DNA of 64,000 bases from positions 15,440,001-15,504,000 of the forward strand of contig NW_024704742.1 of the NCBI RefSeq assembly GCF_018977255.1, read 5' to 3'. The DNA is from Callorhinchus milii (lineage: Eukaryota). Both the position numbers and the translations under genes were made by a program. The notes under the pieces were generated by a model. The model saw only the letters and a list, made by a program, of their open reading frames with translations, ran no database searches and was not told where the DNA came from. This document shows positions 4,150 through 63,993 of this stretch, piece by piece (position 1 is the stretch's first letter; each line of letters begins with the position of its first letter).

Positions 4150-7100
4150 ATTGTTCTTAAGAATAAGACAGCCAGGACTAAGCAGGTATGTTTCTGAACC
4201 GTAGGGATTCGAAAACCTCTCTTGAAATCCATCAAAATCAATAATGTTATTAGCCCATAATGTAAAACTCTTTCAGTGTCTGTGAAACAGAAACAATATT
4301 CAGATGTACCCCAAAGGGAGAGGCAGATTGTGACTGAAACAATAATAGAATTACCAACCTTTTACATCTACATATCTGTTGCTGGTATATAATACTGCAA
4401 GGTTTGTCTCTCCTTAACCTGAAAGGGGGATTGAGCAGATGTGGCAATTCATTTTCCTGTGTGAGGTCAGGTAACTTAAATACTTGCATGAGGTGCATGA
4501 GTTTTGTATAAAAAACAAATGGTATCAAAGGCAACAGGTGCAGCTAAACAAGCAAACCCAAAACTAAGCAAAACCTAAAGGCAAAATACAAGAGTGACAA
4601 ACCAGAGGGTCAGCAGTGAGAGAGGCCTCACCACCCTTTACATGAAAGAGGGTTTCATCGCCAGCTTATTATTTATAAATCATTCACAACATTGCGATTA
4701 ATTTTACAGTCCTTTTGTTTTCAACTTTCTGCAAGCATATAGGTTTTCACTGACAATATTGAATGTCAAGCTTTCCTGCCCTCCTGCTGATACTCTTCAC
4801 AAGATTGCAAGAGAGGTTTGGGTGAATGAGATCCTTCAGCCCATTTGATCTCATCCTTCCAGAACACCTGCCCGACCGTCTTCCCATCACAGCATCAAGC
4901 TGTTTCTTTAATAAGTACTCTGTCTTGATCTCTGGTCCCTATCTTTTTCCTAGTTACCTATTCACTGACTCAATAAATCTGCTACAGATGAAAACTGTGG
5001 TGTATCTATTCAGTATGTCAAAAGAAAGTTTTTGTTCATATACTTGGGAGTTTGTAGAAGCTGCTGGAAAATGCCAATGTTTAATAGATCCTTGTGGAAA
5101 GTCATATCAAAGCTTAATAGATCAAATGAAACATTTTTAAGCAGTAATGCAATGGTGAAGTGTGTTGCATCAGATGTTATAATTAGGAGGCCCTAAAGCA
5201 CATCATCCACACACTTATAATATCATCTAGGCTGACATTCCAATACAGCTGTATTGTTGGAGGTGCTGTCCTTCGGATGTGATGTTAATACTGTGCTATC
5301 TTTTACCTGTTCAGGTGGATGTTGAAGATCCAATGGCACTATTCAAAAAGAGAACGTCTTTTTTCTCAGTGTCCTTGCCAAAAATTAAGTAAATAAAATT
5401 GGTTCATGGCTGTTTAACTCATTATTAATATTATTAACTTAAGGATTTCACGTTAGGCTCAGACGATGGCTTATCTCACACCATTTCCTTCATCTGTGAA
5501 TAACTACAGACTCTTCAGACAGCGTAACAAAGTGAACATCAACATACAAGTAAAACAGCCCATATTGAGAAGGCATGGATATATGTAAATGGACAAACAT
5601 GTTATTAAACAAATAATACATTTCCCAATTCTGCTTTGGTTTCCAGTAATATCCAGTAAATAGCCCGAATTGTGAAAAAAGCATCATTAATTACTTTGTA
5701 GTGCTGATTCAAAATGGACTATTATATCTTATGCTTCATATTGCCAATGTGTCTATGTGGGCTAATCAGGCTGCATTTATTTAGCTTCATAACATCTGCC
5801 TGTATGCTTATGAATTATACTTAGATTTGATACAGTGTCCACAAAATGAGCTACTTTGAAGTGTATTGATTGTTTTGTAGACATGTGTAGCAGCTAATAT
5901 GGACCAGCTACATCTCAGAGAAGCATTGAGATGAATGACTAATCAAGTCTTCAGTCATTACGCTTCCAGCCTTTGGAACTCCCTGCCTCTATCTTTTCAC
6001 CTACACCTCGCCCCCTCTCTACACTTCTTAAAAAACAACCATCACCTTTCAACTGTGGCTATAGGCCCCTCGCCCCCTTCCCCTTTCTCCTACTTCAGCA
6101 TCCAACCCTGGAAACATTATGTACTCTGAGACATTATCTTATATAAATGGTGCTATATAAATACAAGTTGTTTTCGTTAATCTGCTTTTGGCGCTTTTGG
6201 ATGAGGGAGGAATATTTGCCAGGATACCAGTTGGGTGAATTCCACCTGGGCCTAGATTTACTCTATTTATGTAATATTTCAGAGCACAAATTCCTAAATA
6301 CAACCATAATTTTGAAGCCAACTTTTTTAAGTTATTTTAGGAACAGCAGAAAAGCGACTTCAAAGTTAGGTCTGAATTCAACAAATTTCGGAACACTGAG
6401 AAATGTTACACAAATATAGTAAATCTAGACCAAGGCGGTCATACTCTCGTGTAGTTTGTAACTGGAATTCTCTTTCAGAATGTTGAACTGCTAAATATGT
6501 GCTGAGTGATGTTCTTCCCCTCCCCTCCCTTCCCCGCCCCTGACCCCAGCTCAGGTCTGAAATGCTGTACTCTGTCCAGCGCCTTGGGACGTCCTCCCGA
6601 CATGAAAGGCGCTACACAAATGTAATCTTGTTGTTGTTGTGTTTGACCAGAAAATAAAAAGCTCATTCTCCCATTAGTTTGCTATAGTAGATTGCTCAAA
6701 GTAGCTATCTAAATTTGTATGGAGTGAAATACATACCTTACTGCATGCATGATCTGCTCCCTGCTGCTTTGTTGTGGGCCCAGAAGTGTCATCAGGCCTC
6801 TGTTCCCATTCTTCAGCTGTTCACAAATTGACGAGAAAATAAATGTACTAGTCAAATATTGCATCAAACTGGGTTCAACTCCACAATACACAACCACTAC
6901 ACTTTACAGTAAATCCCGTGAAGTGCTTTGAGACGTCCTCCCAATGTAAAAGGCACGATATCAAGTGCAAGTAATATATGAATATATATATTAACAAGTT
7001 CATAAGCAAATCTTAGTTTAATAGATTTAATATTTGTTTGCATGTTCCATTATTTAGAACAATGTATTGTTATGTTATTCACAAACTGCGTAGAGCAGCA

Positions 7101-15745: not shown

Positions 15746-16081
15746 ATAATAATAATAATCCTTGCATTTGATATAATGCCTTATCACATCTTTGAAACAT
15801 CTCAAAGCGCTTCACAGAATATACTGTTAAGAGAACTGACTGTATATTTTGTGGGTGAAACGTGGCAGCCAATTTCACACAGCAGTGTCCCAGAAACTAT
15901 CGTGGATTGAGTGACCTAATTTTTTTCAAGAGTTTATTAACCCCGGGAAAGAGATCTGCCAATTGTCTAACAATGGGGTTCCTACTTACTGCTAGGTAAA
16001 CAGAGGCGTGTGGAGTAAGGAAACCCAGATCCTCTCACTTGTGAGGCGAGTGCTCTAACTACTAAGGTACACAGGACTCCA
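15746..16081 (-). mobile_element. tRNA-derived SINE (long subfamily)
   Basis: Head, internal ctctgtttacctagcagtaagtagg segment, core and (TAA)n tail. Confidence 0.88.
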
Positions 16082-19001: not shown

Positions 19002-19397
19002 ATAATAATAATAATCCTTGCATTTGATATAGCGCTTTTCACGTCGGGAGGATGTCCCAAAGCACTTCACAGAACACACTGTAAAGTGAATTGACTGTAT
19101 ATTTGTGGGCGAACGCGGCAGCCAATTGCGCACAGCAATGTCCCACAAACAGTCGTGGATTGAAGTGACCAATTTTTTTTAAGGAATTATTACTCTCGGA
19201 ACAATCCGAGTAGAAATAATAGTAATTTGGTCACTCAATCCACGACTGTTTGTGGGACACCACTGTGTACAATTGGCTGCTGCATTTCGCCCACAAAATA
19301 TACAGTCAATTCACTTTACAGTATATTCTGTGATGCGCTTTGAATCGTCTCAACAATGTGATAAGGCATTATATCAAATGCAGGGATTATTATTATT
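19002..19397. mobile_element. Two headless SINE 3' halves in inverted orientation
   Basis: 19002-19200 is a - strand copy and 19225-19397 a + strand copy of the same core and tail. Confidence 0.85.
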
Positions 19398-20310: not shown

Positions 20311-21549
20311 TCTTCACTTAATAATTAATAATAATATTAATCCTTGTCTTCGATATAGCCTCTTATCATTTGAGACGTTTCGAAACAATTCACAGAACAT
20401 ACTGTAAAGTAAATTGATTGTATATTTTGTGGGCGAAATTTAAAACACCTTTTTGTCAAAGCAAATAAAGTGAATTTTAACTGGCTGCTACTTATAAAAG
20501 TATTGCTTCAGTTTTGATATATTTACTCTCATTGACATACCTATATATAGTATCAAATGTATTGATATTATTTAAGAGCTGTATTAAAATATTGTACAGT
20601 ATTTAAATCTATTGCAAGTATATTACTTCTCACGCCTCTGTTTATCTAGGACCAAGTAGGAAACCTGAAGTTAGTCGATTGACAGATCACTTTCCTGGGT
20701 GTAATAATTCCTTTAAAAAAATTGGTCAATTTAATATTATTGAATTAAATCCATGACTGTTTGTGGGACATTGCTGTGTGCAATTGGCTGCCACATTTCA
20801 CCCACAAAATATACAATCAATTCACTTGACAGTATATTCTATGAAGCGCTTTAACATGTCCCAAAGATGTGATAAATTGACCAATTTCGCTCCACCAGGT
20901 CTGGTCTCCTCCTTGTCCCCCAAATCCTCTGCTCCACCATCGGCAGCTGTGCTTTTAGCCACTACACCCCGAGGCTCTGGAAATCCCTTCCTTACTCCCT
21001 TCGCCTCGCCCCCTCTCTTCCTATTTTCAGGTCTCGGCTGAAGACCTTTATTTTCGACCGCACCTTTGGTCACCTTCCTTCCCTCTCCCCATGGCTCGGC
21101 CCCGGGATCCGTTACTGTGAAGCGCTCTGAAATGCCATCCGGCATGGAGGGCACTATATAAATCCAAGTTGTTGTTGTTGATAAGGCGTTATTCAAATGC
21201 GAGGATTTTTATAATGGTGAAATTACCTCTAGAAGAAAGCAGTAGGGACAGTGAAGTAATATAAGTATTTAAAATGGGAGAGTTTATTTTAAAGACATAT
21301 GAATTTTATAAAACCTTATCAAGGTTCAAAGTCCTTTACAAGTAATTACCGTTCATTTTTTTTCGTCAGTGTAGTGTCTGACATATGCGGAAACCAATCA
21401 TCATGTTTAAAAGCATCCAAACAAAACTAAGGTTTCCATGTATCCCACCTACACATGGAAATCTCACAGACAGATTGTTGGAATGGAAATGCACTCTCTC
21501 TCCCTGGAGGGACATATCCTGCTTACCTTATTCCGGAAAGTATTACAAA

Positions 21550-23585: not shown

Positions 23586-25559
23586 AAATAATAATTTGGT
23601 CACTCAATCCACAACTGTTTCTGGGATACTGCTGTGCGCAATTGGCTGTCAATTCACTTTACAGTATATTCTGTGAAGCACTTAGAGACGTCTAGAAGAT
23701 GTGCCATATAAAAAAATGCAAAGATTATCATAATCTGTCTATATTCCCCTGAAGTTGTTTACAAATTCTTCATTGCTAGCTACACTCCCTTTATTCATAA
23801 TACTTTCTTGTGATCTCAACAATTGTCCCCCAAAGAACCATGAGGTGAATGAAATATTAATCTGGAGATTTTTAGTTTGGATATATGTGAGTCACTCAAC
23901 ATTTGTATTTTTTTACGAAGGGACTTAAACAGTAATGAAACTGTTATTAAATTCTGCGTAATATTCAAAAGCGATTGAAAAGAAGTTTCAGTATGTAAAT
24001 CATGTGGAGAAATAGAATTAAATTATTAACATATTCATTTTCTGATGGTTCCATTTATCATCTTCGTTTATCATCCTCCTTACAAACACGTAATAATCCA
24101 CTTGAATAAAATTTTTCTTACAGAGCATTTTTCTCACAGGCTGAATAACTGGACCTTAATCTCCTCTTTGACATTTGAAGAAGCAATGATAACCTTTATT
24201 TTAGTTCTTGAAAGAAACAGTTTCTTTATTATTCTCACAAATTTAAGATCAGCAATTACCATTGACCTTGAATGTTAAAGGTTCATCTAGAACCTATAAT
24301 ATTCTTGGTCTCACCATCTTTTGGAGCTGATCAGAGAAGATTCAGAAGAATGTGATAGCAGTCTTTAAAATTCTGAAGGGACATGATAAGGTGAAGAAGG
24401 AATCTTATTTCTTTTAATTGGGGTAATCAGTGATGCAGGAGGTGGGGAGGTTAGTTGCATGATTCTTATGCATCCTGCTTATCTAATTCTGGAAAGTATT
24501 AGGCACAGGAGGCATCTATGGGAAGATCTTCTGTCCTGCAGTGGAATATGTGATACATCAGCTGCAGAGTTCAAGAGTTGAAACTTTAACCTATTCACTT
24601 CATACAGACAGGCAATTGGAGCCTGGGAATTTCCCATAAAATTGAATGCTTGGTGTTGAAACACAGGAAGTGAGGATACAGTGAGTGACATTGGCTTGTA
24701 GCACATTATACAATAAGCAGAACCCAGGAATATTAGAAGCTTCTTATCTACGGTCATGTATAGCCAAATACTGTCCTTCTATTCAGTGTCTGGACTTCAC
24801 TGCTCAAAGCTACATGGAAATATATGAAGGTCAATTTGGTGTGACTGAAGAAACATCCTCCAGTCTCACCGTGGCTGATGTACCATTTTTCACATAGACT
24901 AACAGTTCCTTCCACAGAATTAGTTTGAAATATTGTGATGGAATCCTATGTGGATTCTTTACAAAATATATCTCACCCAGCCCAGCAGGTTCAAGCTCTA
25001 CTTCGGAAATTGAACTCAAGGTTGAGAGTGACAGTGCAGTACTGGAAGAGTGGGATATTGTTGGAGGCGCTGTCTTTTGATAAGAGTTTAAACTGGAATC
25101 CCATCTGTTTATAAACACATCTTGTTTACCTAGCAGTAAGTAGGAACCCATTGTTAGTCGATTGGCAGATTGCTTTTCCAGGGGGTAATAATAATCCCTT
25201 CATAAATAATCATAATAATAATTTGGTCCCTCAATCCATGATTATTTGTGGAACACTGCTGTGCACAATTGGCTGCCCCATTTCACCCACAAAATACACA
25301 GTCACCACACCTTACATTATATTCTGTGAAGCACTTTGAGATATCTCAAAGACATGATAAGGTGCTATATCAAATGCAAGGATTATTATTATTATACAAG
25401 CAAAGGTTAGACTCCATTGCACTATTTGACAAGAGAAGGAATTTTCTCCTGATGTCCTGGCCAACAATATACCAAGTTAGTTGATCATTTACCTCATGGC
25501 TGTTTGAACAAGTGCTCCGGGATGCTACCACGCATGAAGGGCGCTAAATTGAGCTCCAC

Positions 25560-27887: not shown

Positions 27888-30800
27888 CAACAACAGCAAC
27901 AACAACAAGATTCCATTTATGGAGCACCCTTCACGTTGGGAGGACGTCCCAAGGCAATGTACAGGTGGGTCAGGACCCGAGAAGGGGAGAAATGGTCAGG
28001 GTGAGGGGAGGGAAGGGAGGGAGCGAGGAGGGGGAAGAGAGTCGAGAGGGGAGCCGAAGGCTCGGTCAAAGAGAAAGGTCTTGAGACCGGCTTTGAAGGA
28101 GGAAAGGGAGGAGGCGGTGAAGGCACTGGGGGATAGAGTTCCAAAGCCTAGGGGTTAAGAGGCTGAAGGCCCGGCCACCGATGGTAGGACGGTTGGGGCG
28201 GGGGATGTGGAGCAGACCGGAGCCAGAGGAACGGAGGGTACGGGCAGGTAGGTAGGGGGATAGTAGGTCAGAGAGGTAGGAGGGAGCAAGACTGTGAATG
28301 GCCTTGTAGATGAGGATGATGATCTTGAAATCGATCCTCTGGGGGAAGGGGAGCCAATGGAGGCGAGTGAGGGTGGGACTGATGTGGTCCCGAAGCCTGG
28401 TGTGGGACAGTACACCAGCTGCAGAGTTCTGAATGACCTGCAGATTGTGGAGGGAGGTGCCGGGAAGGCCGACGAGGAGAGAGTTCCCATAGTCCAGCGT
28501 TGACGTGATAAAGGCGTGAACCAGAGTTTCAGCAGCGTGAGGGGTGAGGTAGTGCCGTAGTCTGGCGATATTCCAGAGGTGATGGAAGGCAGTGCCAGTT
28601 GTGGCGCGGATATGAGGGAGAAAGGACAGCTCAGGGTCGAACAGAACCCCGAGGTTCCTGACTGGCTATGAAAGGTGGAGAGTGCAGCCTTGGATGCTGA
28701 TGGTGTCAGTGCCTGAGGTGCGGAGGCGCTGACGTGAGCCAATCAGGAGGGCCTCAGTTTTGCGCACGTTGAGCTGAAGAAAGTTGTCTCTCGTCCAGGA
28801 CTCGATGTCGGACAGGCAGCTGTCAGGACATCGGTGGTCGTGGAGTTGAGGGTAGAGGAGGAAAGGTAGAGTTGGGTGTCATCCGCATACATGTGGAAGT
28901 TAACCCCATGTCTGCGGATGATGTCACCAAGGGGGAGCATATAGAGGGTGAAGAGGAGGGGACCGAGGACAGAGCCCTGAGGGACACCACACGAGACAGT
29001 GCGGGGGGTGGAGGAAAAGCCATTCGTGGAAACATAGTGAAGACGGTGGGAGAGGTACGACCTAAACCACTCAAGGACAGTGCCTTGAAGGTTGAGGTGG
29101 GAGGACAAGCTGTGGAGGAGGATAGCGTGGTCGACCATATCGAATGCTGCCGATAGGTCGAGGAGGACGAGGAGGCAGAGGGAGCCCTGGTCACAGATGG
29201 TCAGGATGTCATTGGTGACCTTGACCAGGGCAGTTTCTGTGCTATGGGCAGCACGGAAACCCGACTGAAGGGATTCGAATAGTGAATGGGTGGCCAGGAA
29301 AGAGCGCAGCTGGGAGGCGACAACTCGTTCCAGGACCTTGGACAGAAAGGGGAGGTTGGAGATGGGCCGGTAACTTGATAGCTGCGACGCATCAAGGGAG
29401 GGTTTTTTCAAGGTGGGAGTGATGGTGGCAGTTTTTAAGGGAATGGGAACAGAGCCAGAGGAGAGGGACAGGTTGACGTTGTCTGTGATATGTGGGGCAA
29501 GGAGGTGGAGCTGAGAGATAAGGAGTGGAGTGGGGATAGGGTCAAGGGAGCAGGTGGTGGGTTTCAGGGATAGGATGAGTTTGGTGACAGAGGGTGGGGA
29601 AACGGGTACGAAAGTGTGTAGGAGTAGGGTAGGAGTCGGAGTGTGGGAGGGAGTGGGGGGTGGGTGGATGTTGGAGGGGAAGTGACCGCGGAGCGAATTG
29701 CCTTGCATTCAAGGAAATCCAGCATCTCTTCGCGCAGTGCGGTTGGAGGAGATGACCTGCGCGGGGTGGTGGGGGGGACGGAGGAGTCGCGATGTGGTAG
29801 AAAACAGTAGCCTGGGGTTGTTTTTCGACTCCAGGATTATCCTGGAGTAGAAGGACGGCTTGGCCGAGGCTAGAGTGGAGCGGTAGATTTTGAGGAAGTC
29901 CAGCCAGATTTGTCTGTGGACCGTTAGGCCAGATTAGATGCAGGTGAGTTCAGCGGCCCGCACCTGGCTTTTCAGTGAGCGGAGGTGGGTGGTGAACCAG
30001 GGGGAGGAGCGAGAGTAGGAGACAGTACGGGAGGTGATGGGGGCAAGAGTGTCAAGTGTGGAGGAGAGGGTGTTGTGGAGGAGGGTGAGAGGAGAAGAGG
30101 GGTCAGTGAGGGTTGAAGGCCAGAGGGAGAGGAGTTCAGAGGACTCCAAGGCAGCGGTTAGGGATTGTGGGGGTAACTTCTTCCAGGGGCGGTAGAAGAT
30201 GGTGGTGGGTCTGGTGGAGGTGGGGAGGGGGTGGAGGTGGTGAAGGAGATGAAGTGGTGGTCGGAGACGGCCTTGTCGGTAATAGTGACATCCGAGACAC
30301 TGAGGCCCCGGGTGATCACCAAGTCGAGTGGGTGGCCGTGACTGTGAGTGGGAGAGTTGATGTGGAGGGAGAGGTTGAGCGAGGAGAGCAGGGAAGAGAA
30401 GTCCCAGGAGATGGAGCAGGAGGGGGTGAAGTGCAGGTTGAAGTCGCCCAGGATGATGAGGCGATCAGAGCAGAGGCAGAGAGATGTAAGGAGTATCGAT
30501 ATATCGGAGATGAAGGTGGGAGAGGTTTTAGGGGGCCGGTAGGGGAAGAGGATTTTGAGCGAGAGGAAGGAGGGGTGGGAGAGGGTGAGGTGCTCAAAAG
30601 CAGGGAAAGAGCCAGAGGAGTAGGGGGATAGGGCAAGTGGTGTCCTTGAGATAAGGGCTACACCACCGCCACGGCGGTTGGGGTGAGGGATGTGGTGGAA
30701 GGTGTAGCCGGGTGGTGTGGCTTCCGTGAGGGGGAAGGTGTCGCCTGGGGTGAGCCAGGATGAGTCAAGGATGAGATCGTTGATGACCAGGGCCTTGTTA

Positions 30801-31510
30801 TAGAGGAAGCGGACGTTTTGTAGTCCAATGCGGAGGGAGCGGTTGACAGAAGGGTTTGTGGGAGGGAGGGGGGTCCAGGTTGTGAAGCAGGGGTGGGGGA
30901 AATGGGGATGAGGGAGGAGAGGTTGGCTCCCCGGGTCTGTGTCCGGGGTGGCTGGCGAGTGTGGGACAGTCGGTGTGGCTGCTGCTGGACAGCCAACGCT
31001 GAGTGCCACGGTGAGCCCGGCGGAGGATTCCCAGGCTGGAACAGAGGGAGGTTGTGGGAGGGTCAAGTGGGGATAGAAGGCGAGAGGGACGGAGAGAGAG
31101 GAGGACAGAGCGGGAGAGATGCAGAGTGGGGAGGGTTTGGGTGTAGAGAGGAGGGACGAGGGAGGGAGGGGGTGAGGGGGCTCGGGTCAAAGCAGCAGCC
31201 ATAGTGCGCACGCGGGGACTGGGAGCGAGCGGTCAGGTGGATGGCATTATCCCGTAGGCTGGAGCAGCCAACCCAACAGGACCATGATGGGCTCTGAGCG
31301 CTGGGGGTGGGGGGCGCAGAGTTTTTTTTTTGTTGCGCGCGCACACTCCTGAAAACTAAACTATGACGTCAGTGGTTCCACCGCTCCGCCCCCACCCGAT
31401 CCCTCTCAGCCCCACACCCCCTGGCTGCACTCCCTGCCGCGTCGAGCTTAAGTACCTGGGTAGGTAGGCCCAGGCTCCTCCCCGCGCTGTCCTGCCGCCG
31501 CCCCCCTTTT
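27888..31510 (-). mobile_element. Near-full-length L2-clade LINE (APE endonuclease + RT), frameshifted
   Basis: EN motifs GLQNVR, RRGGGVA, LIILGDFNLH, PTHSHGHPLDLV, SDHH (ORF 30158-31066); RT motifs [35 protein letters not shown] (ORF 28743-29708); (TTG)n tail at ~27888-27908; GC/CpG-rich 5' region 31200-31510. Confidence 0.95.
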
Positions 31511-51985: not shown

Positions 51986-52611
51986 TTGGAGGGCTCATCC
52001 GAGATTGTTGATGTCACTGCAGGAAACACAAGGCACTGCTGTGGTCTTGGAGGAAAACATCGCAAGAGGAATCCCTGCATCTCATGGCCTATAGGATATG
52101 TGCATGTGTGCCAGCTTTTATATTTCATACATTTTTTATTTGCTGTGCTTTAGCAGACACACAGCAAGAAGCTAAAACAAAATTGTTCTTGGATGTCCAG
52201 CAATGATTTTTAAAAAGAAATCCATGGAGAGATGCCATAGGAATAAGCAGTTTTCAGATGAGTTACTATCTCCTTCATATACATATTTTGTGTCCAATAA
52301 AATATTATAAAATCATTGCACTTTACAGTAAATCTCGTGAATGACTTTGCGATGTCTTCCCTATCTGAAAGGCACTATATAAAATGAAAGCATTATTTAT
52401 TTATTATTTATTACAGTTCATTAGAATAGATACAGAGAGAAAATGTGCCATAGGTTATTGGGTCATCTTCAGTGATAATACCACATTTTGCACTTTTCAC
52501 CTAAAAAAATTTATACAGCTACTCGGTTATGAAAACATGTCCTTGTCTTCAAATTTTTAGGGAAAATCCACAAGCGATAAACTCAAATTTAGAATTATTT
52601 GTGATGTTTAA

Positions 52612-55231
52612 TGATCGCCTCATCATCCTGGGCGACTTCAACCTGCACTTCACCCCCTCCTGCTCCATCTCCTCGGACTTCTCTTCCCTACTTTCCTCGC
52701 TCAACCTCTCTCTCCACATCAACTCCGCCACGCACAGTCACGGCCACCCACTCGATTTGGTGATCACCCGGGGCCTCAGTGTCTCGGATGTCACCATTAC
52801 CGACAAGGCCATCTCCGATCACCACTTCATCTCCTTCACCACCTCCACCCCCCTCCCCACCTCCACCAGACCCACCACCATCTTCTTCCGCCCCTGGAAG
52901 AAGTTACCCCCACAATCCCTAACCGCTGCCTTGGAGTCCTTTGAACTCCTCTCCCTCTGGCCTTCAACCCTCACTCTCCTGCTCTCACCCTCCTCCACAA
53001 CACCCTCTCCTCCACACTCAACACTCTTGCCCCCATCACCTCCCGTAGTCTCCTACTCTCACTCCTCCCCCTGGTTCACCACCCACCTCCGCTCACTGAA
53101 GAGCCAGGTGCGGGCCGCTGAACGCACCTGTGTCAAATCTGGCCTAACGGTCCACCGACAAATCTGGCTGGACTTCCTCAAAATCTACCACTCCACTCTA
53201 GCTTCGGCCAAGTCGTCCTTCTACTCCAGGATAATCCTGGAGACGAAGAACAACCCCAGGCTTCTTTTTTCTACCACATCCCGACTCCTCCGTTCCCCCC
53301 ACCACCCCGCGTAGGTCATCTCCTCCAACCTTCACTGCGAGGGGATGCTGGATTTCCTTCAATCCAGAATCAAGGGAATCCGCTCCGCGGTGACTCCCCC
53401 TCCAACTTCCACCCACCCCCCATCCCTTCCCTCCCATACACCAACTCCTACCCATCCTCCCCTACACACCTTCAAACCCGTTTCCCCACCCTGTCACCAA
53501 ACTCATCCTGTCCCTGAAACCCACCACCTGCTCCCTTGACCCCATCTCCACTCCACTCCTTATCTCTCAGCTCCACCTCCTTGCCCCACCTATCACAGAC
53601 ATCATCAACCTGTCCTCTCCTCTGGCTCTGTTCCCATTCCCCTAAAAACTGCCATCATCACTCCCACTTTGAAAAAACCTTCCCTTGATGCGTCGCAGCT
53701 ATCAAGCTACCGGCCCATCTCCAACCTCCCCTTCCTGTCCAAGGTCCTTGAAAGAGTTGTTGCCTTCCAGCTGCGCTCTTTCCTCTCCACCCATGCATTA
53801 TTCAAACCCCTTCAGTCGGGTTTCCGTGCTGCCCATAACACAGAAACCGCCCTGGTCAAGGTCACCAATGACATCTTGGCCATCTGCGCCCAGGGCTCCC
53901 TCTGCCTCCTCGTCCTCCTCGACCTATCAGTAGCATTCGATACGGTCGACCACGCTATCCTCCTCCACCGCTTGACCTCCCACCTCAACCTTCAAGGCCC
54001 CGTCCTTGAGTGGTTTAGGTCGTACTTCTCCCACCGTCTTCATTTTGTTTCCGCAAACGGCTTTTCCTCCACCCCCCACACTGTCTCGTGTGGTGTCTCT
54101 CAGGGCTCTGTCCTCGGTCCCCTCCTCTTAACCCTCTATATGCTCCCCCTTGGTGACATCATCCACAGACATGGGGTTAACTTCCACATGTATGCGGATG
54201 ACACCCAACTCTACCTTTCCTCCTCTACCCTCAACTCCACGACCACCGATGTCCTGACAGCCCGCCTGTCCAACATCGAATCCTGGACGAAAGACAACTT
54301 TCTTCAGCTCAACGTGCACAAAACTGAGGCCCTCCTGATTGGCTCACGTCAGCGCCTCCACACCTCAGGCGCTGACAGCATCAGCATCCAAGGCTGCACT
54401 TTCCACCTCTCAAAGCCAGTCAGGAACCTCGGGGTTCTGTTTGACCCTGAGCTGTCCTTTCTTCCTCATATCCGCACCACAACTGGCACCGCCTTCCATC
54501 ACCTCCGAAACATTGCTAGACTACGGCATTACCTCAACCCTCACGCTTCTGAAACTCTGGTCCACGCCTTTATCACCTCAAGGCTGGACTATGGGAACTG
54601 TCTCCTCGCCGGCCTTCCCGGCACCTCCCTCCACAAGCTGCAGGTCATTCAGAACTCTGCAGCTCGTGTACTGTCCCGTACCAGGCTTTGGGGCCACATC
54701 ACTCCCACCCTCGCTCGCCTCCACTGGCTCCCCATCCCCCAGAGAATCGAATTCAAGATCCTCATCCTCACCTACAAGGCCATTCACGGCCTTGCTCCCT
54801 CCTACCTCTCCGACCTACTATCCCCCTACCTACCTGCCCGTACCTTCCGTCCTCTGGCTCCGGTCTGCTCCACATCTCCCGCCCCAACCGCCCTACCATC
54901 GGTGGCCGGGCGTTCAGCCTCTCAGCCCCTAGGCTCTGGAATTCTATCCCCCAGTGCCTTCGCCTTCCTTCCTACCTTTCCTCCTTCAAGGCCGGTCTCA
55001 AAACCTTTCTCTTTGACTGTGCCTTCAGCTCCCCTCTCGACTTCCTACTCCCTCCTCGCTCCCTCCTTTCCTCCCCTCACCCTGACCATTTCCCCCCTCC
55101 TCGCTCCCTCCCTTCCCTCCCTCACCCTGACCATTTCCCCTCTAATCGGGTCCTGACCCCACTGTCCAGTGCCTTATGACGTCCTCCCGACGTAAAAGGC
55201 GCTTTATAAATGGAATCTTGTTGTTGTTGTT
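52612..55231 (+). mobile_element. 5'-truncated young L2 LINE (C-terminal half of EN + RT)
   Basis: ORFs 52529-53314 (GDFNLH...SDHH) and 53669-55156 (YRPISNL, QGSVLGP, YADD); 3' stem-loop and (TTG)n tail; closely similar to the 28-31 kb copy. Confidence 0.95.
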
Positions 55232-56810: not shown

Positions 56811-57202
56811 TTCCAGCAATATATATATAAAAAAAATTGCAGCCATCACATTTAGTGCATAAATGTAAAACATGTAGCTTTTTATTGTTTCTGAATTGAG
56901 TTTGTAGGAATGTGGTCAGAATTCTTAAACAAGTAGACTGTTGTGAAGAACTGTGTGTCCTGGACTGAGCATCCATTGTGGGGAAAGGTAAGAGCTGAAA
57001 TCATTCCATCTATCGGCAATTGCTTGCAATTGTCTACATTTTCTCTGTTGTGTGTGATTGCTGGAGGAATGAGGCAGCTGGTCTGATAATGGAAAGATAC
57101 TTGATCAGCGATTATTAACACATGGATGTTTAGAGCAGCAGCGAGTACAGACCTTCTTTGCCAAATACACAGCTCAGAAGAATCAAGAGAACAATATCAA
57201 AG

Positions 57203-57260
57203 ATGAACCGGGAAGCCACTGTGATTATTCTCATGTTGCTTTTATGTGTAGCTGCGCAAG
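57203..57260 (+). CDS. CXC chemokine exon 1 (signal peptide MNREATVIILMLLLCVAAQ-G)
   Basis: ATG in aagATGa context; 19 codons with a hydrophobic core ending A-Q-G, typical of a signal peptidase site; phase-1 donor AAG|GTACGT at 57261. Confidence 0.9.
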
Positions 57261-57969
57261 GTACGTGCAAATTGTAATGTTTGCCAACCTGTGCTTAATA
57301 CTTTCCGGAATTGTGTAATTGTAATGAGGAACATAAGGTTTATTTTAAAGCTAATCTTTTTATATACATATCTTATGAAAGAGGAACTGTGAACTTGCAG
57401 AAGAGTATTTTTAACCTAATCATATACCAAAAATCTTGAGTATAAGTAATGTATGATAAAGCATTTGTTTGTGTATAGTGAACCACTCATTTGTCAGGTT
57501 GGGTCAATTAGTTAACACCCTTGACTTTAGATCACAAGCGTTTGAGTTCAAGGCTCATATCAGGTCTAAAGCTTTACAGTTACAATTGACAGTTTTCAAT
57601 TTTTAATATCTTTGACAGAAAATATTGTCAATAACAACAATTTACATTTATATAGCATGTTTCATGTTGGGAGGACGTCAGTTTCATCTAACTGACAGTT
57701 AGAACAACAGAGCTGACTGGGAGTGAACTAATGTTCATTTTGGATAAATAATTTTAGATTTTTATTGATGATCTTGACTTCAAAAATATCTGACTTCTGT
57801 TGTCAGGTTGCCACAGACATGAATTCCATTTTTGTAGTTAAAAGCATGCCTTAAAAGTCAATAGAAATAGATGTTTATCAATAGGAAATCATTTCCATGT
57901 AATTGTGGAAAAATGACGATTCGCAATATCTATAGATTTCTATAGAAAGTCTACTTATAATTAAGTAAG

Positions 57970-58256
57970 CCCATTTAGGCCATTTAAGAGTGAAATCAGG
58001 ATGCATTTTTTCACTCAAAAGGTGGTAGAAATCTGGAATTTTCTCTCCCAAAAGGCCATGGATGTTGGATCTATCCACACGTTCAAGAGTGAGGGTGATA
58101 GATTTTTGGTAGGTCGGGGTATTAAGGGATACGGGGAGAAAGCAGGAAATTGGAATTGAAAGGATTAGTTTAGGTACAGATCAGTTATGATCTAATTAAA
58201 GGCGGAACGGGCTTGAAGTGCTGAATGGCCTCCTCCTGTTCCCATGTTCCTATGTA
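57970..58256 (+). mobile_element. CR1 3' fragment in chemokine intron 1
   Basis: FFTQKVVEIWN-like terminus plus CR1 3'UTR (gaatggcctcctcctgttcc). Confidence 0.8.
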
Positions 58257-58434
58257 TAATCAAAAATGACATTCCTGTGAAGTTCTGGGGTATCACTCTA
58301 TTGTCAGAGATGGTTGTATTTGTGGTAGATATCAGTGGTTAGAATTTCTGAATTCACATACAATGGCATGTACAAGCATCTGCTAAATGCTGTGGTACTT
58401 GTCCAAGCTGGAATGGCATGTTTAGGGAATCATC

Positions 58435-59480
58435 CAGAATCATAGACTCTTTCAGCATAGAAGGAGGCAATTCAGCCCATCATGCTTGTGCCGGCTCTTT
58501 AGAAGAGTTACCCAATCAGTCCAACTCCCCCACTTTTACTCCATAGTCCTGAATTTTTTTCCTTTTCATTTACCTATCCAATTTCTTTTTGGAAGCTACT
58601 ATCGAATCTGCTTCCACCAGTCTTTCAGGTAGTGTATTCCAGATCGTAACCACTCTCTGGGTAAAAAGATTTCTCCTCATCTCCCCAATGATTCTTTTGC
58701 CAATTAACTTAAATCTGTTCTCTGGTTATCGACCCACCTGCCAGAGGAAATAGTTTTATAATAATAATAATAATCCTTGCATTTGATATAGCGCTTTTCA
58801 CGTCGGGAGGACGTCCCAAAGCGCTTCACAGAACACACTGTAAAGTGAATTGACTGTATATTTGTGGGCGAACGCGGCAGCCAATTGCGCACAGTAATGT
58901 CCCACAAACAGTCGTAGATTGAAAATGACCAATTTATTATTCTTTTTGGCTTTGGAGGGATTATTATTAGGCGTGTGGAGTAAGGAAACTTGCCCAAGGT
59001 TTCGCCCTGCCTGGAATTGAACTCAGGTCTCTCACTTGCAAAGCGAGTGCTCTAACCACTGAGCTACAGGACTCCACATTTACTATTTACTGTATCAAAA
59101 CCCCTCATAATTTTGAACACCTCAATGAAATCTCCTATTAATCTTCTCTTCTCTAAGGAGAACAATCACAGCCTCTCCAGTCTCTCCACATAATTGAAGT
59201 CCCTCATTCCCTGATACCATTCTGGTATATCTCCTTTGCACCCTCTCCAAGGCCCTGGCATACTTCCAAAAATGTGTGCACAGAATTGGACACAATACTT
59301 CAGCTGAGGCCTAATCAGTGACTTGTAAAGATTTGGCATAACCTCCATGCTTTTGTACTCTATGCCTCCATTTATAAAACCAAGGATCCAGTATGCTATT
59401 TTTAACAGCTTTGTCCACTTGTCCTGCCATCTTCAAAGATTTGTGGACGTGAGCCCTCAGGGCTCTGTGTTCCTGCACAG
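58435..59480 (-). mobile_element. CR1 3' fragment in chemokine intron 1, interrupted by a SINE
   Basis: LYKSLIRPQLKYCVQF motif (ORF 59166-59348); CR1 sequence continues on both sides of the SINE at 58758-59077. Confidence 0.88.
58758..59077 (-). mobile_element. tRNA-derived SINE (short subfamily) nested in CR1
   Basis: Near-identical to the 7222 copy; CR1 resumes on both sides. Confidence 0.93.
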
Positions 59481-60150
59481 TGTTCTCTCCTCCCACCCTT
59501 CCCCAAAGAGGATAGTTTTGGACATTGACTCCCCTAAAAGATGAAGAGCTGTGTATAGCAATATGTACCAGACAGTATCAAATTTGCAAACTAATCATTA
59601 TACTGTGAGTTATCAACATGTCTCATAACAGATAATCTAGACGACAGCAAATCCATTCTGTATATTAGGCAACCATGCTGATCTCTTGTGCTTTGAAGCT
59701 GGATGTAGATTCAATTCAGTCAATAATGTAATTACAACAATCCATTCATGTGTACAGAACCCTAGAACTCTGTCCTTCAAATAAACTAAATTATTTTCCC
59801 TTAAATAATCGGTCAAATCCAACGAACTCACTCAGAGGCATAAGCTCTTATGGCCATAATCTGTAGTGTGTTTAAATAAAACATTTCATTTTTTTTTCTA
59901 TTTCTTAATGAAGAATTGCTTTAGAATCTCCACTCCAGAAGTGAATGGAATTTCCTCAGTTTTGCATGGAGTACCTCTGATTATCGGAAGATGTCACTAA
60001 TTATATGATTCAGATTCCTTATTAAGAAACAGAAATATCACATTTACAACCCCGCTATTGCAATAGGGAATCCTGTTCTGACAGGTGGAGGGGAGGGATC
60101 AAAGCATATTGTTGGAAGTTTTGATCTGTATTCCAAATACAACTAACTTG

Positions 60151-61192
60151 GTATGCGGATGACACCCAACTCTACCTTTCCTCCTCTACTCTCAACTCCA
60201 CGAACACCGATGTCCTGACAGCCTGCCTGTCCGACATCGAGTCCTGGACGAGAGACAACTTTCTTCAGCTCAACGTGCGAAAAACCGAGGCCCTCCTGAT
60301 TGGCTCACGTCAGCGCTCCGCACCTCAGGCGCCGACACCATCAGCATCCAAGGCTGCACTCTCCACCTCTCAAAGCCAGTCAGGAACCTCGGCGTTTTGT
60401 TCGACCCTGAGCTGTCCTTTCTCCCTCACATCCGCACCACAACTGGCACCGCCTTCCATCACCTTCGCAACATCGCCAGACTACGGCACTACCTCACCCC
60501 TCACGCTGCTAAAACCCTGGTCCACGCCTTTGTCACCTCAAGGCTGGACTATGGGAACTCTCTCCTCGTCGGCCTTCCTGCCACCTCCCTCCACAAGCTG
60601 CAGGTCATTCAGAACTCTGCAGCTCGTGTACTGTCCCGCACCAGGCTTCGGGACCACATCACTCCCACCCTCGCTCGCCTCCACTGGCTCCCCATCCCCC
60701 AGAGGATCGAATTCAAGATCCTCATCCTCACCTACAAGGCCATTCACGGCCTTGCTCCCTCCTACCTCTCCAACCTACTATCCCCCTACCTACCTGCCCG
60801 TACCCTCCGTTCCTCCGGCTCCGGTCTGCTCCACGTCCCCCGCCCCAATCGCCCTACCATCGGTGGTCGGGCTTTCAGCCTCTCAGCCCCTAGGCTCTGG
60901 AACTCTATCCCCCAGTGCCTTCGCCGCCTCCTCCCTCTCCTCCTTCAAGGCCAGTCTCAAAACCTTTCTCTTTGACCGAGCCTTCAGCTCCCCTCTCGAC
61001 TCTCTTCCCCCTCCTCGCTCCCTCCCTTCCCTCCCTTCACCCTGACCATTTCCCCCCTCCTCGCTCCCTCCCTTCCCTCCCCTCACCCTGACCATTTCCC
61101 CCTGCTCGGGTCATGACCCAACTGTGCAGCGCCTTGGGACGTCCTCCTGACGTGAAAGGCGCTTTATAAATGGAATCTTGTTGTTGTTGTTG
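60151..61192 (+). mobile_element. 5'-truncated young L2 LINE inside chemokine intron 1
   Basis: Begins at the YADD-coding sequence (tatgcggatgac); ORF 60397-60975 is the L2 ORF2 C-terminus; ends in (TTG)n about 137 bp before exon 2. Confidence 0.95.
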
Positions 61193-61329
61193 GTAAATTT
61201 TGATAGTCATTGGTTTGAAAGCATTGGAGCATTTTTCAATTCTGCCTCTTCTGTCCCATTCCTTAGAAAACTGGCTCAGGAAACCAATGTCATCATGTGA
61301 TTAATACATGGATTCCATTTGCTGTGCAG

Positions 61330-61456
61330 GCTTCATTTTGAGACGCGAGGGACGTTGCCGGTGTCCTAGAGCTACCTTGGCCTACATCCCCGTGCAGTAC
61401 ATCAAGAATGTGAACTTTATTCCCAGAGGGTTTAATTGCTTTAAAGAGCAAGTGAT
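61330..61456 (+). CDS. CXC chemokine exon 2 (GFILRREGRCRCPRATLAYIPVQYIKNVNFIPRGFNCFKEQVI)
   Basis: Acceptor tttgctgtgcag|; 127 nt, phase 1 in and phase 2 out; CXC motif with third Cys 24 residues later; donor AT|GTAAGT at 61457. Matches the standard CXC chemokine exon 2 layout. Confidence 0.95.
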
Positions 61457-61756
61457 GTAAGTAATCAGGCCACACTTACTCTAAGCTGTATTTAATATGC
61501 TCTGATCTCTGTCTGAAATTGCCTTGGTTTTAAAAAAAGGTTAGTTCATTTCCAATGCCTCCTCAAGCTTGAGTCACAGATATCCAATCCATTATCAACA
61601 GCATTGCAATAAACCTGAGAACAGAAAACCTGGCTTAATTCCACCCTTTTTTGTTCGTTGTATGTTCACATTTCCTGTCAAATAGAGAAATTGAGATATT
61701 TCCCCAAGTGCATTCTAATAATATCACTTATAGTCTGTCATTGCTGTTCTTTCTAG

Positions 61757-61830
61757 TGTTTTTTTGAAAACTGGAGGTGAAATCTGTGTCAAACCTCGCG
61801 CAAAATGGTTGAAAGAAATCAAAAAGAAAG
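61757..61830 (+). CDS. CXC chemokine exon 3 (VFLKTGGEICVKPRAKWLKEIKKK)
   Basis: Acceptor ttgctgttctttctag| in phase 2; fourth Cys 15 residues after the third; CVxPxAxW chemokine helix motif; donor AAG|GTATGT at 61831. Confidence 0.93.
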
Positions 61831-61839
61831 GTATGTTTT

Positions 61840-62222
61840 ATAATAATAATAATCCTTGCATTTGATCTTGCGCCTTGTCACGTCTTTGAGGCATCTCAAA
61901 GCACTTCATATAATATACTGTAAAGTGAATTGACTGTATATTTTGTGGTGAAACGTGGTAGCCATTTGCGCACAGCAGTGTCCCACAAACAGTCGTGGAT
62001 TAAGTGATCAAATTATTGTTTTTTTTTTTAAATTTGGAAGGGATTATTACCACTGGAAAAGCGATCTGCCAATCGACTAACAATTGGGTTTCTACTTACA
62101 ACTAGGTGAACAGAGGCGTGTGGAGTAAGGAAACTTGCCCAGTGTTTTGCCCTGCTGGGAATCAAACCCACGTTCTATTACTTGCGAGGCAAGTACTCTA
62201 ATCACTGAGCTACAGGACTCCA
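61840..62222 (-). mobile_element. tRNA-derived SINE (long subfamily) immediately after chemokine exon 3
   Basis: (TAA)n tail starts about 9 bp after the exon 3 donor; complete head at ~62222. Confidence 0.9.
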
Positions 62223-62709
62223 TTATCACTAAGCTACAGAATTTCTGCAGAGCTTCTACAAGTAGAGTAGTAACTTTAAGTTAAAGCATGAGTGCTTTAA
62301 GAATGTCTACATATTATTGACAATGGAAAGCTATAAAGGCATACAGTAGTTCTACAGTCTGCAACTTCATCAAGGAAGGGCTGAGCTGTGGTCGAACAAA
62401 AATAATATAAGAAGAGTCAGAAGGGTTGTCAAACCGGTTCTATCTGTCTATCTCACTGTCATTCCAAAGCAATTATTATGTTATACAGTGGACTTGGAAG
62501 AGTGGAGGAATAGCAAGAGAATGTGAAAAACTGGAAGCATTATCTTTTTTCTTTTATTACGGTGCTCCGAGCAAGCTACAGATCAAAAGAAGAAATCAGT
62601 CACTAGGGAATGCTTCAGAACATGTTACCTCTGCAAATTAATAACATTCATATATTTTTTTATCCTGAGCACAATCTTCTCACAAAGTCAGCATTGATTT
62701 GTGTTTCAG

Positions 62710-63160
62710 CCTAGCTCAGTGTGTCAGCCTACCTTACTCTTGCCTCTGAGTCAGAAGCACACGTTGGGATTTGGAATCACATAGACTACACATAGACTAC
62801 ATTCCAATGCTGTGATGGGGTGTTGCATTATTGGAGGTGCTGTATTCTTAAACCTTATTTGTAGGTGAAAGCCAACTTGCACATAGAAATATCCCACAAA
62901 CCTCATGAAGTGAGTGACCAATTTTTACTTGGGGGATTGTTGGCCAGGACACTCCCTTCCTTTTTTGAATAGTGTAAAGGGATCTTTAACGTCCACCTGT
63001 ACAGGCACAGACAAGACCTCGGTTTAATGTCTCATGCAGAGGATGGTACCTCTGACAATGCAGCACATTCACTGCACTGGAGTGTCATCATAAACTATGT
63101 GAGTTCAAAGTCCCACAAACGTCTGACTCAGAGATGAGAGTGTTTCGACTGAGCTAGGTG
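62710..63160. mobile_element. Ancient Deu-type SINE remnants; similar ones near 5.2-5.4, 10.9-11.2, 18.1-18.4, 38.0-38.4, 40.8-41.1, 42.4-42.6, 51.5-51.8 and 55.3-55.5 kb
   Basis: Recurring diverged motifs gggatctttaacgtccacctg, ctcggtttaatgtctcatcc, ctgactcagag. Confidence 0.65.
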
Positions 63161-63400
63161 AACACATGAGCAAGTGAAAACAAGAGATTAAAAATAATTA
63201 ACAAGCAAAATACAGCCTGAACCAAACTAAACTTTCCACCTGTATATAAAATAAATGCCAACAGAAGTTTGAAACGAGCAGAGTTCCAATAATTCACGTA
63301 ATATAAACTGTGAGGAATACATTCTCAAGCAGGGATTGGTCCATCAACTGAAGACAGAAGCAAAGCTGCCTTTTCTGCTAAAGAGCCACTGAACAAGCTT

Positions 63401-63513
63401 TTCCTGGAATTCACGCAAGTTGCGTCACATGATCATATGCTTGAATGAACTTTTGAATGTGTGCAGCTTTGCAGAAACCTCCTTAGGCACTTCAAAAAGC
63501 AGAAACTGAAACT
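63401..63513. promoter_or_regulatory. GAS + ISRE motif pair 3' of chemokine exon 3
   Basis: TTCCTGGAA (GAS consensus) at 63401-63409 and GAAACTGAAACT (ISRE) at 63502-63513. Confidence 0.4.
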
Positions 63514-63599
63514 GTAAGATTGCAAGCAGACAGACAGAAATGGATACCGGCACAGACACAATGGGCAAATGACCTCCTTCTGTGCTGTATAATTCTATG

Positions 63600-63862
63600 A
63601 GATGCACACAGGCAGACACAGAGACAAACACATACAGACAAACACAAAGAGATGCAGAAAGATGCACAAGACAGAGATAGAGAGACAGATGCACACACAG
63701 TAACACAGAAATACACATTCAGGGAGATACAGAGGCAGTCACACACACAGAAACACACAGAGATGCAGAAATATACAGAGATAAAGAGACAGACACACAC
63801 ACACAGAAACGCACAGAAACACACAAATATGCAGAAATATACAGACAGCAGAGAGCAACAGA
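63600..63862. repeat. Degenerate CA/GA microsatellite
   Basis: Recurring acacagag/agatgcagaaa units; explains ORFs 63425-63872. Confidence 0.85.
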
Positions 63863-63910
63863 GGAAAGCCAATGACTTAAATCAGCTGCTACCCTCCTCT
63901 TTTGCCTCAG

Positions 63911-63993
63911 ACACTGATCTCAGTCGTCAGAAAGCATTTCAACATGGGGATTCCTTCAGGATATGCCAAGATTTTTGGGAGAGGAGCATTTGA
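63911..63993 (+). CDS. Probable CXC chemokine exon 4 (DTDLSRQKAFQHGDSFRICQDFWERSI*), giving a 113-aa precursor
   Basis: Strong pyrimidine-rich acceptor ccctcctcttttgcctcag|; open in phase 1 to TGA at 63991-63993. No homology support, and alternative C-termini exist (see findings). Confidence 0.5.

Follow-up and report, generated by a model that had tools for sequence, protein, structure and literature searches.

A CXC chemokine gene beside tnip3 in the elephant shark, orthologous to the AGR-type gene of sharks

The CXC chemokine (CXCL) genes of vertebrates are described in a 2024 survey as falling into three sets, namely cluster A, which contains the CXCL8-like genes and in chondrichthyans adjoins jchain, cluster B, and the region of CXCL13, and in the account given there all chondrichthyan cxcl genes with intron phases 1-2-1 lie in cluster B (PMC10801876). 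In sharks, the interval between cnot6l and tnip3 contains three types of genes. The genes adjacent to cnot6l have an exon 2 of 133 nucleotides (nt), phases 1-2-2 and the CXC motif at nt 33, the arrays of 'QGR' genes have exons of 61/130/80 nt, phases 1-2-1 and CXC at nt 30, and a single 'AGR' gene, listed for catshark and whale shark, adjoins tnip3 on the other strand (PMC10801876). The catshark gene (Scyliorhinus canicula LOC119963154 / XP_038647751.1) has exons of 58/127/74/38 nt, phases 1-2-1, CXC at nt 27, the descriptors E and WL and an isoelectric point (pI) of 10.76; the whale shark gene is Rhincodon typus LOC109932532 (PMC10801876). The kind of gene as such is not new, for its orthologues in sharks have been annotated and listed in a table. 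In the full-text literature no functional study of the shark AGR-type gene was found, only the tabulation in PMC10801876. Here we describe a gene of this type from a chimaera, the elephant shark (Callorhinchus milii). It lies in a window of 64,000 nt, which is the whole stretch analysed (C1:15440001-15504000 of the 0.99-Gb assembly, contig NW_024704742.1).

With a probability of roughly 80% we read the locus as a functional, transcribed, four-exon CXC chemokine gene that stands head-to-head with tnip3, is orthologous, on the holocephalan side, to the AGR-type gene of sharks and is apparently uncatalogued. New are the elephant shark member itself, the age of the gene type, which we infer to be older than the split between holocephalans and elasmobranchs, and an altered exon-4 acceptor.

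The gene and its shark orthologues

Three exons on the forward strand splice in frame. The coding part of exon 1 (57203..57260, 58 nt) starts with an ATG, encodes 19 1/3 codons of the signal peptide and is followed by the donor GTACGT. Exon 2 (61330..61456, 127 nt) is flanked by an acceptor ending in TGCAG and the donor GTAAGT, and exon 3 (61757..61830, 74 nt) by an acceptor ending in TCTAG and the phase 1 donor GTATGT. Both intron 1 (57261..61329, phase 1) and intron 2 (61457..61756, 300 nt, phase 2), likewise on the forward strand, begin with GT and end with AG, and the phases of the gene are 1, 2, 1. When the exons were joined by their coordinates, a product of 86 residues was obtained with cysteines at 29, 31, 56 and 72, i.e. 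the spacing C-X-C-24-C-15-C. The three in-frame exons and this spacing had been proposed before by a sequence-only reading, and DNA, translation and splice borders bear them out, as they do the junctions at 57260/61330 and 61456/61757. That none of the exons appears in the list of open reading frames (ORFs) is true as well, but trivial because they are only 58-127 nt long; the only stop-to-stop ORF of at least 70 amino acids that overlaps one of them (57073..57318) is in another frame.

The first 20 residues of the translation are hydrophobic. Exon 2 encodes the last residue of the signal peptide, an N-terminus of eight residues ending in EGR, the CXC motif (which begins 27 nt into the numbering of the exon, at nt 27), the N-loop and the initial strands as far as the third cysteine, whereas exon 3 contributes the third strand, the fourth cysteine and a basic C-terminal helix. 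For the 66 residues of exons 2 and 3 the pI is about 10.3, and the mature protein is thus very basic.

To assign the product, single exons were used in the Pfam, PDB and large protein searches, and the structure model was made from a natural shark orthologue. Exon 3 alone matched Pfam IL8 (PF00048) with E 3.9e-4 and 21.0 bits, just under the whole-protein cut-off of 21.3, while exon 2 alone hit no Pfam family at E<=1. In the PDB, exon 2 alone matched two CXCL13 chains (best human CXCL13, E 8e-4), and the best match of exon 3 was mouse CXCL13 (E 0.047). Exon 2 alone also matched four shark chemokines with E values from 4e-9 to 7.5e-12 and 68-73% identity, all four of the four candidates passing. 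The spliced product scored 126-131 bits against five shark proteins, all of which carry a precomputed PF00048 annotation. For the shark orthologue P0004 the predicted structure has strands at 44-50, 60-65 and 70-73 and a helix at 77-90, with a mean predicted local distance difference test score (pLDDT) of 67.7. Foldseek found 23 PDB matches for this model at E<=1e-3, and among the matches listed all were chemokines; the top three were CXCL13 chains, with E values of 2.3e-4 barely different from those of CXCL1, CXCL7 and CXCL8 (about 5e-4). The window gene is a genuine non-ELR CXC chemokine gene of a cartilaginous fish, as had been claimed from the letters alone, and the chemokine domain expected there is found both by the Pfam match of exon 3 and by the shark matches of exon 2.

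When 154 chemokine proteins were compared with the whole window by tblastn, matches with E<1e-3 fell on these three exons only, which indicates one chemokine gene in the window and no tandem array. A second gene was considered for a set of weak, repeated tblastn matches (E 0.08-0.6) and rejected, as these belong to a dispersed repeat.

The five shark orthologues come from Cetorhinus, Heterodontus, Scyliorhinus, Chiloscyllium punctatum and Rhincodon. With the shark AGR-type gene the window gene shares exons of 58/127/74 nt, phases 1-2-1, CXC at nt 27, E and WL, and a very basic product, and it likewise is the last cxcl gene before tnip3, head-to-head with it at the end of cluster B. The window protein is 67-69% identical to the five shark proteins, compared to 41-43% for ray QGR-type, 26-29% for tetrapod CXCL9/10-like and 32-33% for CXCL13-like proteins. 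In a quick tree of 116 rows and 100 columns it formed a clade with the five sharks, supported by 98 in the Shimodaira-Hasegawa-like approximate likelihood ratio test (SH-aLRT), in which it was sister to the sharks, as expected for a chimaera. From exon and phase descriptors, position, identity and clade taken together we conclude that the shark AGR-type gene has its holocephalan orthologue in the window gene. Differences exist as well: the elephant shark gene has EGR instead of AGR before the CXC motif and RCRC instead of RCHC or RCLC, its exon-4 acceptor and stop are not conserved, so that the C-terminal tail probably differs, its host is a chimaera, and it has no model in the catalogue of Dataset S1. 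An exhaustive profile search returned 199 proteins at E<=1e-3 and only one cluster at 50% identity with E<=1e-30, and the AGR gene type is therefore narrow. The earlier proposal of a possibly lineage-specific gene with no clear one-to-one orthologue holds in part: none can be demonstrated in bony vertebrates by the tree and the topology tests given below, but clear ones exist in five sharks. Since these five are annotated and two of them were tabulated in the 2024 paper, the novelty of the gene is partly reduced.

The synteny gives the same picture. The first coding exon of TNIP3 lies at window positions 6736-6831 on the reverse strand and corresponds to residues 2-33 of the named Callorhinchus milii protein (32 of 32 identical). 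An exon for the CC2-LZ (UBAN) region is located at C1:15424598-15424720, also on the reverse strand and 15 kb ahead of the window; a protein search with the translated exon led to TNFAIP3-interacting protein 3 of Callorhinchus milii (98% identity). The chemokine gene itself occupies C1:15497203-15502600, head-to-head with tnip3 and 12 kb before the first listed cxcl gene. Three cxcl genes follow downstream at C1:15515407, 15524519 and 15532947. For the elephant shark, Dataset S1 lists tnip3 at 15416194-15460114 (complement) and cxcl genes at 15514848-15517762, 15523977-15525869 and 15532407-15533901 (PMC10801876), and the three downstream genes are inside these ranges. The window gene lies on the margin of the cnot6l-tnip3 cluster of cxcl genes ('cluster B'). 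Its downstream neighbours are the elephant shark QGR/RAR-type genes LOC103177361, LOC103177359 and LOC103177358, which form tandem arrays 12-30 kb downstream. They share the cluster, phases 1-2-1 and a similar signal peptide, and genes of this type encode the nearest non-orthologous proteins; they differ in a 130-nt exon 2, CXC at nt 30, an exon 3 of 77-80 nt, multiple copies and fast divergence. Ray QGR queries are 48-57% identical to exon 2 of the neighbouring elephant shark cxcl genes.

Between tnip3 and LOC103177361 the cluster catalogue of Dataset S1 lists nothing (PMC10801876). In a set of 5.8 billion proteins no protein containing exon 2 was found either, the best of four matches being 73% identical. 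The gene appears to be missing from the current elephant shark gene catalogues, and for this species it was fair to call it hidden.

Transcription was followed in contigs of four sequencing runs (X1, X2, X3 and X9). In run X1 a contig of 242 nt (record 7, depth 3.2) joins 61456 to 61757 exactly and with 0 mismatches, its letters 41-169 corresponding to 61328-61456 and its letters 170-242 to 61757-61829. The 40 letters ahead of 61328 do not extend into intron 1, as splicing to exon 1 would give; they are not placed, and the removal of intron 1 is therefore implied by this contig. Of the two proposed junctions, one is thus seen joined and the other only implied. X2, X3 and X9 have no cover over exon 2, which is no evidence of absence. 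In the elephant shark genome the shark orthologue has a single match, which lies within the window (one of seven candidates at E<=1e-3), so that a retrocopy does not explain the joined contig. As the contig lacks intron 2 and a retrocopy is not at hand, we take the gene to be transcribed and spliced, on the slender basis of one contig from one run.

The 3' end and the surrounding sequence

The phase 1 donor of exon 3 leaves the frame open, so that the gene must end either in a fourth exon or by read-through. In the shark orthologues intron 3 interrupts a Gly codon, and some 12 further residues complete the protein. In a six-frame scan of the whole window for these shark tails, 18 matches had at least 6/13 identities, and only one reached 7/13. 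This one lies at 62561 on the forward strand, 730 nt after exon 3 and right behind a pyrimidine tract, and it starts with Gly. The frame of the corresponding remnant or candidate of the ancestral exon 4 (62562..62641, +) matches the shark C-terminal tails and has its stop at 62639-62641. The bases ahead of it (62560-62561) read CG, not AG, and the position of the shark stop is a sense codon here, the frame closing 13 codons later. The description of the gene as intact consequently applies to exons 1-3 and not to the 3' end.

Three ends are possible. An acceptor may be used at the next AG (62570-62571), which lies behind the same pyrimidine tract and is among the 13 of 185 AGs that had at least 14/20 pyrimidines in an acceptor scan; the coding part of this candidate alternative exon 4 (62572..62606, +) would add 11 residues in a different frame with a stop at 62604-62606. 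Read-through of the exon-3 donor would give 11 residues and a stop, and the old site could be used if 62560 is an assembly or allelic variant. Every candidate end closes the frame within 11-26 codons. The chemokine domain ends in exon 3 and hence is untouched by any of them. In the four runs no contig covers 62400-62623, where exon 4 is expected to start, and this lack of cover is no evidence either way. Downstream of exon 3 the window contains a single AATAAA, a candidate polyadenylation signal, at 63250..63255 (+). The gene had been drawn as far as 63993, an end that nothing supports; the recognisable exon-4 remnant lies at 62562. A strong-looking acceptor at 63911 was rejected, since the sequence behind it resembles none of the orthologue tails and continues past the end of the window.

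At the other end of the gene, conservation with the 5' ends of the orthologues in sharks extends about 40 nt upstream of the ATG, and the tblastn match of the shark orthologue P0005 spans 57164-57262 (64% identity, E 1.8e-7). The 5' untranslated stretch 57164-57202 is an in-frame match to annotated N-terminal extensions of the Scyliorhinus and Cetorhinus proteins (64% over 33 residues). No upstream in-frame ATG is present within 57164-57202. Conservation without such an ATG fits the remark 'initiation codon corrected' that is given for the catshark gene (PMC10801876).

Intron 1 carries a 3' fragment of a long interspersed nuclear element (LINE)-type retroelement at about 60125-61100, with an RVT_1 match at 60125-61042 (+, E 4.8e-4), plus other repeats, and has a very high summed repeat depth. 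Together with this piece, LINE-type sequence was found at 28746-31186 (-) and 52505-55153 (+), where the reverse transcriptase (RVT_1) reached E 1.3e-30 and 7.9e-33 and the endonuclease (Exo_endo_phos) E 2.1e-8. These LINE-type stretches account for the strong GC skew in the composition profile. A C-rich tandem unit of 45-46 nt in two copies (93-98% matches) sits at the 3' end of both plus-strand pieces, at 61007-61102 and at 55050-55140. Copies of the dispersed repeat that mimics a chemokine N-loop are located at 15825-15890 (-), 19261-19320 (+), 20775-20828 (+), 25254-25301 (+) and 61919-61954 (-), the last one in intron 3 beside a stretch at about 62100-62240 that resembles a tRNA-derived short interspersed nuclear element (SINE). 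This repeat can mislead exon hunting in the cluster.

By the coordinates of Dataset S1 the first 20 kb or so of the window belong to tnip3 (PMC10801876). Among the downstream genes, the first (exon 2 at C1:15515407-15515538) and the third have the same exon-2 translation, with SAH before CXC, whereas in Dataset S1 the first (LOC103177361) is entered with RAR and SAH is confined to the third (PMC10801876). The mismatch may be a slip in the table, a difference between mRNA record and assembly, or gene conversion.

Relation to other CXC chemokines and rival readings

The sequence-only reading had seen CXCL9/CXCL11-like features at the N-terminus, and this was correct, as xGR before CXC is common to both human proteins: CXCL9 has KGR, CXC at nt 27 and phases 1-2-0, and CXCL11 has RGR, CXC at nt 27 and phases 1-2-0 (Dataset S2, PMC10801876). 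The window gene resembles them in its EGR directly before CXC, the position of CXC at nt 27, the high pI and its place in cluster B. It is unlike them in the third phase, which is 1 instead of 0, in an identity of 26-29% to tetrapod CXCL9/10-like proteins, and in that a promoter scan yielded no motifs of the interferon type. The free quick tree puts the AGR clade in the company of lungfish 'CXCL13-like', salmonid CXCL8c and CXCd1, snake and mammalian CXCL15 sequences, with a support of 64, and does not join it with tetrapod CXCL9/10/11. In approximately unbiased (AU) tests, for which the constraint groups were named after the tree had been seen, neither the AGR clade held with the tetrapod CXCL9/10/11-like clade (p-AU 0.787) nor the AGR clade held with the ray QGR and CXCL13-like clade (p-AU 0.876) was rejected. 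Both constrained searches beat the free search, by 24.2 and 27.4 units of log likelihood (lnL), and since they differ from each other by only about 3 lnL, neither grouping is preferred. On the sequences compared, the trees cannot decide between CXCL9/11 and CXCL13, and the description of the gene as one of mixed features, with no demonstrable one-to-one orthologue in bony vertebrates, stands.

Three other readings were weighed. If the gene were the elephant shark orthologue of CXCL13, it would encode a B-cell-zone chemokine acting on CXCR5, a receptor that Table 2 of PMC3568907 reports as present in this species. The CXCL13-like motifs do exist in the window protein: human CXCL13 aligns over RCRC, xIP and PRG in exon 2 and mouse CXCL13 over ICVxPRAKWL in exon 3, and CXCL13 is the best PDB sequence match for both exons. 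The Foldseek ranking of the orthologue model, a lungfish 'CXCL13-like' protein among the weak neighbours in the tree and a CXCL13-like grouping that the AU test does not reject are compatible with this reading. However, the five shark orthologues have RCHC or RCLC and PHSNWL or PHAKWL in place of the CXCL13-like RCRC and PRAKWL, which shows that these motifs are not ancestral to this gene type. A profile of the five sharks matched IL-8 in the PDB with 45.3 bits, CXCL9 with 41.3, CXCL11 with 32.0 and CXCL13 with 29.8, the latter being 26th of 43 matches. Human CXCL13, which lies beside CNOT6L, has phases 1-2-2 and CXC at nt 33 (Dataset S2, PMC10801876), whereas in the window gene, which adjoins tnip3, the phases are 1-2-1 and CXC is at nt 27. 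In sharks, other genes, those beside cnot6l, bear the CXCL13-type descriptors (133-nt exon 2, phases 1-2-2, nt 33). In the elephant shark cnot6l is at 34.76 Mb of the same scaffold and its neighbouring cxcl gene at 34.75 Mb, 19 Mb away from the window gene at 15.50 Mb (PMC10801876). We therefore consider CXCL13 orthology improbable, and 'CXCL13-like' should not be read as orthology. Still less probable is an interleukin-8 (CXCL8)-type neutrophil attractant. This is what the automatic names suggest, as all five orthologues are called 'interleukin-8-like' by NCBI; IL-8 also heads the PDB matches of the orthologue profile, and the E-G-R of the elephant shark stands where ELR chemokines have E-L-R. 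Yet EGR is no ELR-type motif by the definition of PMC10801876 (ELR, SLR, DLR, NLR), and the five sharks have AGR at this place. Moreover, in all nine chondrichthyans the CXCL8-like genes form a separate cluster next to jchain and anxa5, with an exon 2 of 136 nt, phases 1-2-2 and the CXC motif at nt 36; in the elephant shark this cluster is at 0.08-0.14 Mb of the same scaffold (PMC10801876).

The last alternative concerns the state of the gene rather than its kind, namely that it is decaying: transcription would persist, but the 3' end would be broken and the gene would be heading to the pseudogene state of some sharks. The CG at the ancestral exon-4 acceptor and the loss of the ancestral stop would fit this and weigh against our reading. 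An orthologue is tabulated in just two of the nine chondrichthyans of Dataset S1, with no such gene in the other seven, and a pseudogene adjoins tnip3 in the white-spotted bamboo shark (PMC10801876), so that the gene is dispensable in some lineages. No annotated gene model exists. Other points count against our reading as a whole. None of the runs is on record as RNA, 12 small-share runs being only guessed as 'RNA?', and splicing was seen in one low-depth contig (depth 3.2) of one of four runs, with its first 40 letters unplaced. In the 1 kb before the ATG none of six consensus patterns for the interferon-stimulated response element (ISRE), IRF, NF-kB and the gamma-activated site (GAS) was found; the promoter thus gives no hint of regulation, and this is weak evidence on interferon inducibility. 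Finally, Table 2 of a 2012 survey of a fragmented elephant shark assembly has CXCR5 and no CXCR3 (PMC3568907), which weakens the guess of a CXCR3-type receptor. Against decay, exons 1-3 keep the start codon, five canonical splice sites, the four cysteines and 67-69% identity to sharks, from which chimaeras split about 420 million years ago according to the date given in PMC6238376. The whole chemokine domain ends within exon 3, every candidate 3' end closes the frame in 11-26 codons, and a spliced contig exists. Decay is therefore unlikely, and a functional AGR-type orthologue remains our preferred reading.

Proposed function and meaning of the gene

The following mechanism is drawn from chemokine family biology and the model of orthologue P0004. 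The signal peptide of 20 residues would be cut after Gly20, the cleavage site following the SignalP column given for the orthologues (PMC10801876). Disulfides between Cys29 and Cys56 and between Cys31 and Cys72 would hold the three strands and the C-terminal helix together. A free, flexible N-terminus of eight residues ending in EGR could then trigger a CXCR-type G-protein-coupled receptor on which the N-loop docks, while the Lys-rich helix would bind glycosaminoglycans.

Conserved single-copy chemokines are usually contrasted with fast-evolving clustered ones. The window gene is single-copy and is far better conserved across the chimaera-shark split than its tandem neighbours (67-69% vs 41-43%). 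This favours a conserved, probably constitutive role over a fast-evolving inflammatory one. For the receptor, chances are about even that it is another or an unknown one. A CXCR3-like receptor, suggested by the xGR motif, the CXC position and cluster B, is a tentative candidate (a CXCR3-like gene is reported in little skate, PMC9252580), and CXCR5 would be a more doubtful one. As a speculation to which we give rather low odds, the gene may be the chondrichthyan representative of the lineage that yielded tetrapod CXCL9/10/11, or else a constitutive chemokine of long standing in cartilaginous fish whose receptor pairing has not been observed in mammals; the C-terminal tail of the elephant shark protein would perhaps also have been remodelled by the loss of the ancestral exon-4 acceptor. 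If it were true, the CXCL9/10/11-lineage reading would put a CXCR3-type ligand into the common ancestor of jawed vertebrates.

The gene adds a useful member to the chemokine family and no new kind of molecule or mechanism, and its importance is modest, chiefly for comparative immunologists and for annotation. It illustrates that short-exon cytokine genes are still missed by automatic annotation. Its unusual conservation for a chemokine makes it a reasonable candidate for receptor de-orphanisation in cartilaginous fish. The immune signalling of the earliest jawed vertebrates is reconstructed from the chemokine repertoires of cartilaginous fish, with the elephant shark as the usual reference, and to these repertoires our analysis adds an AGR-type gene that predates the split between chimaeras and sharks.

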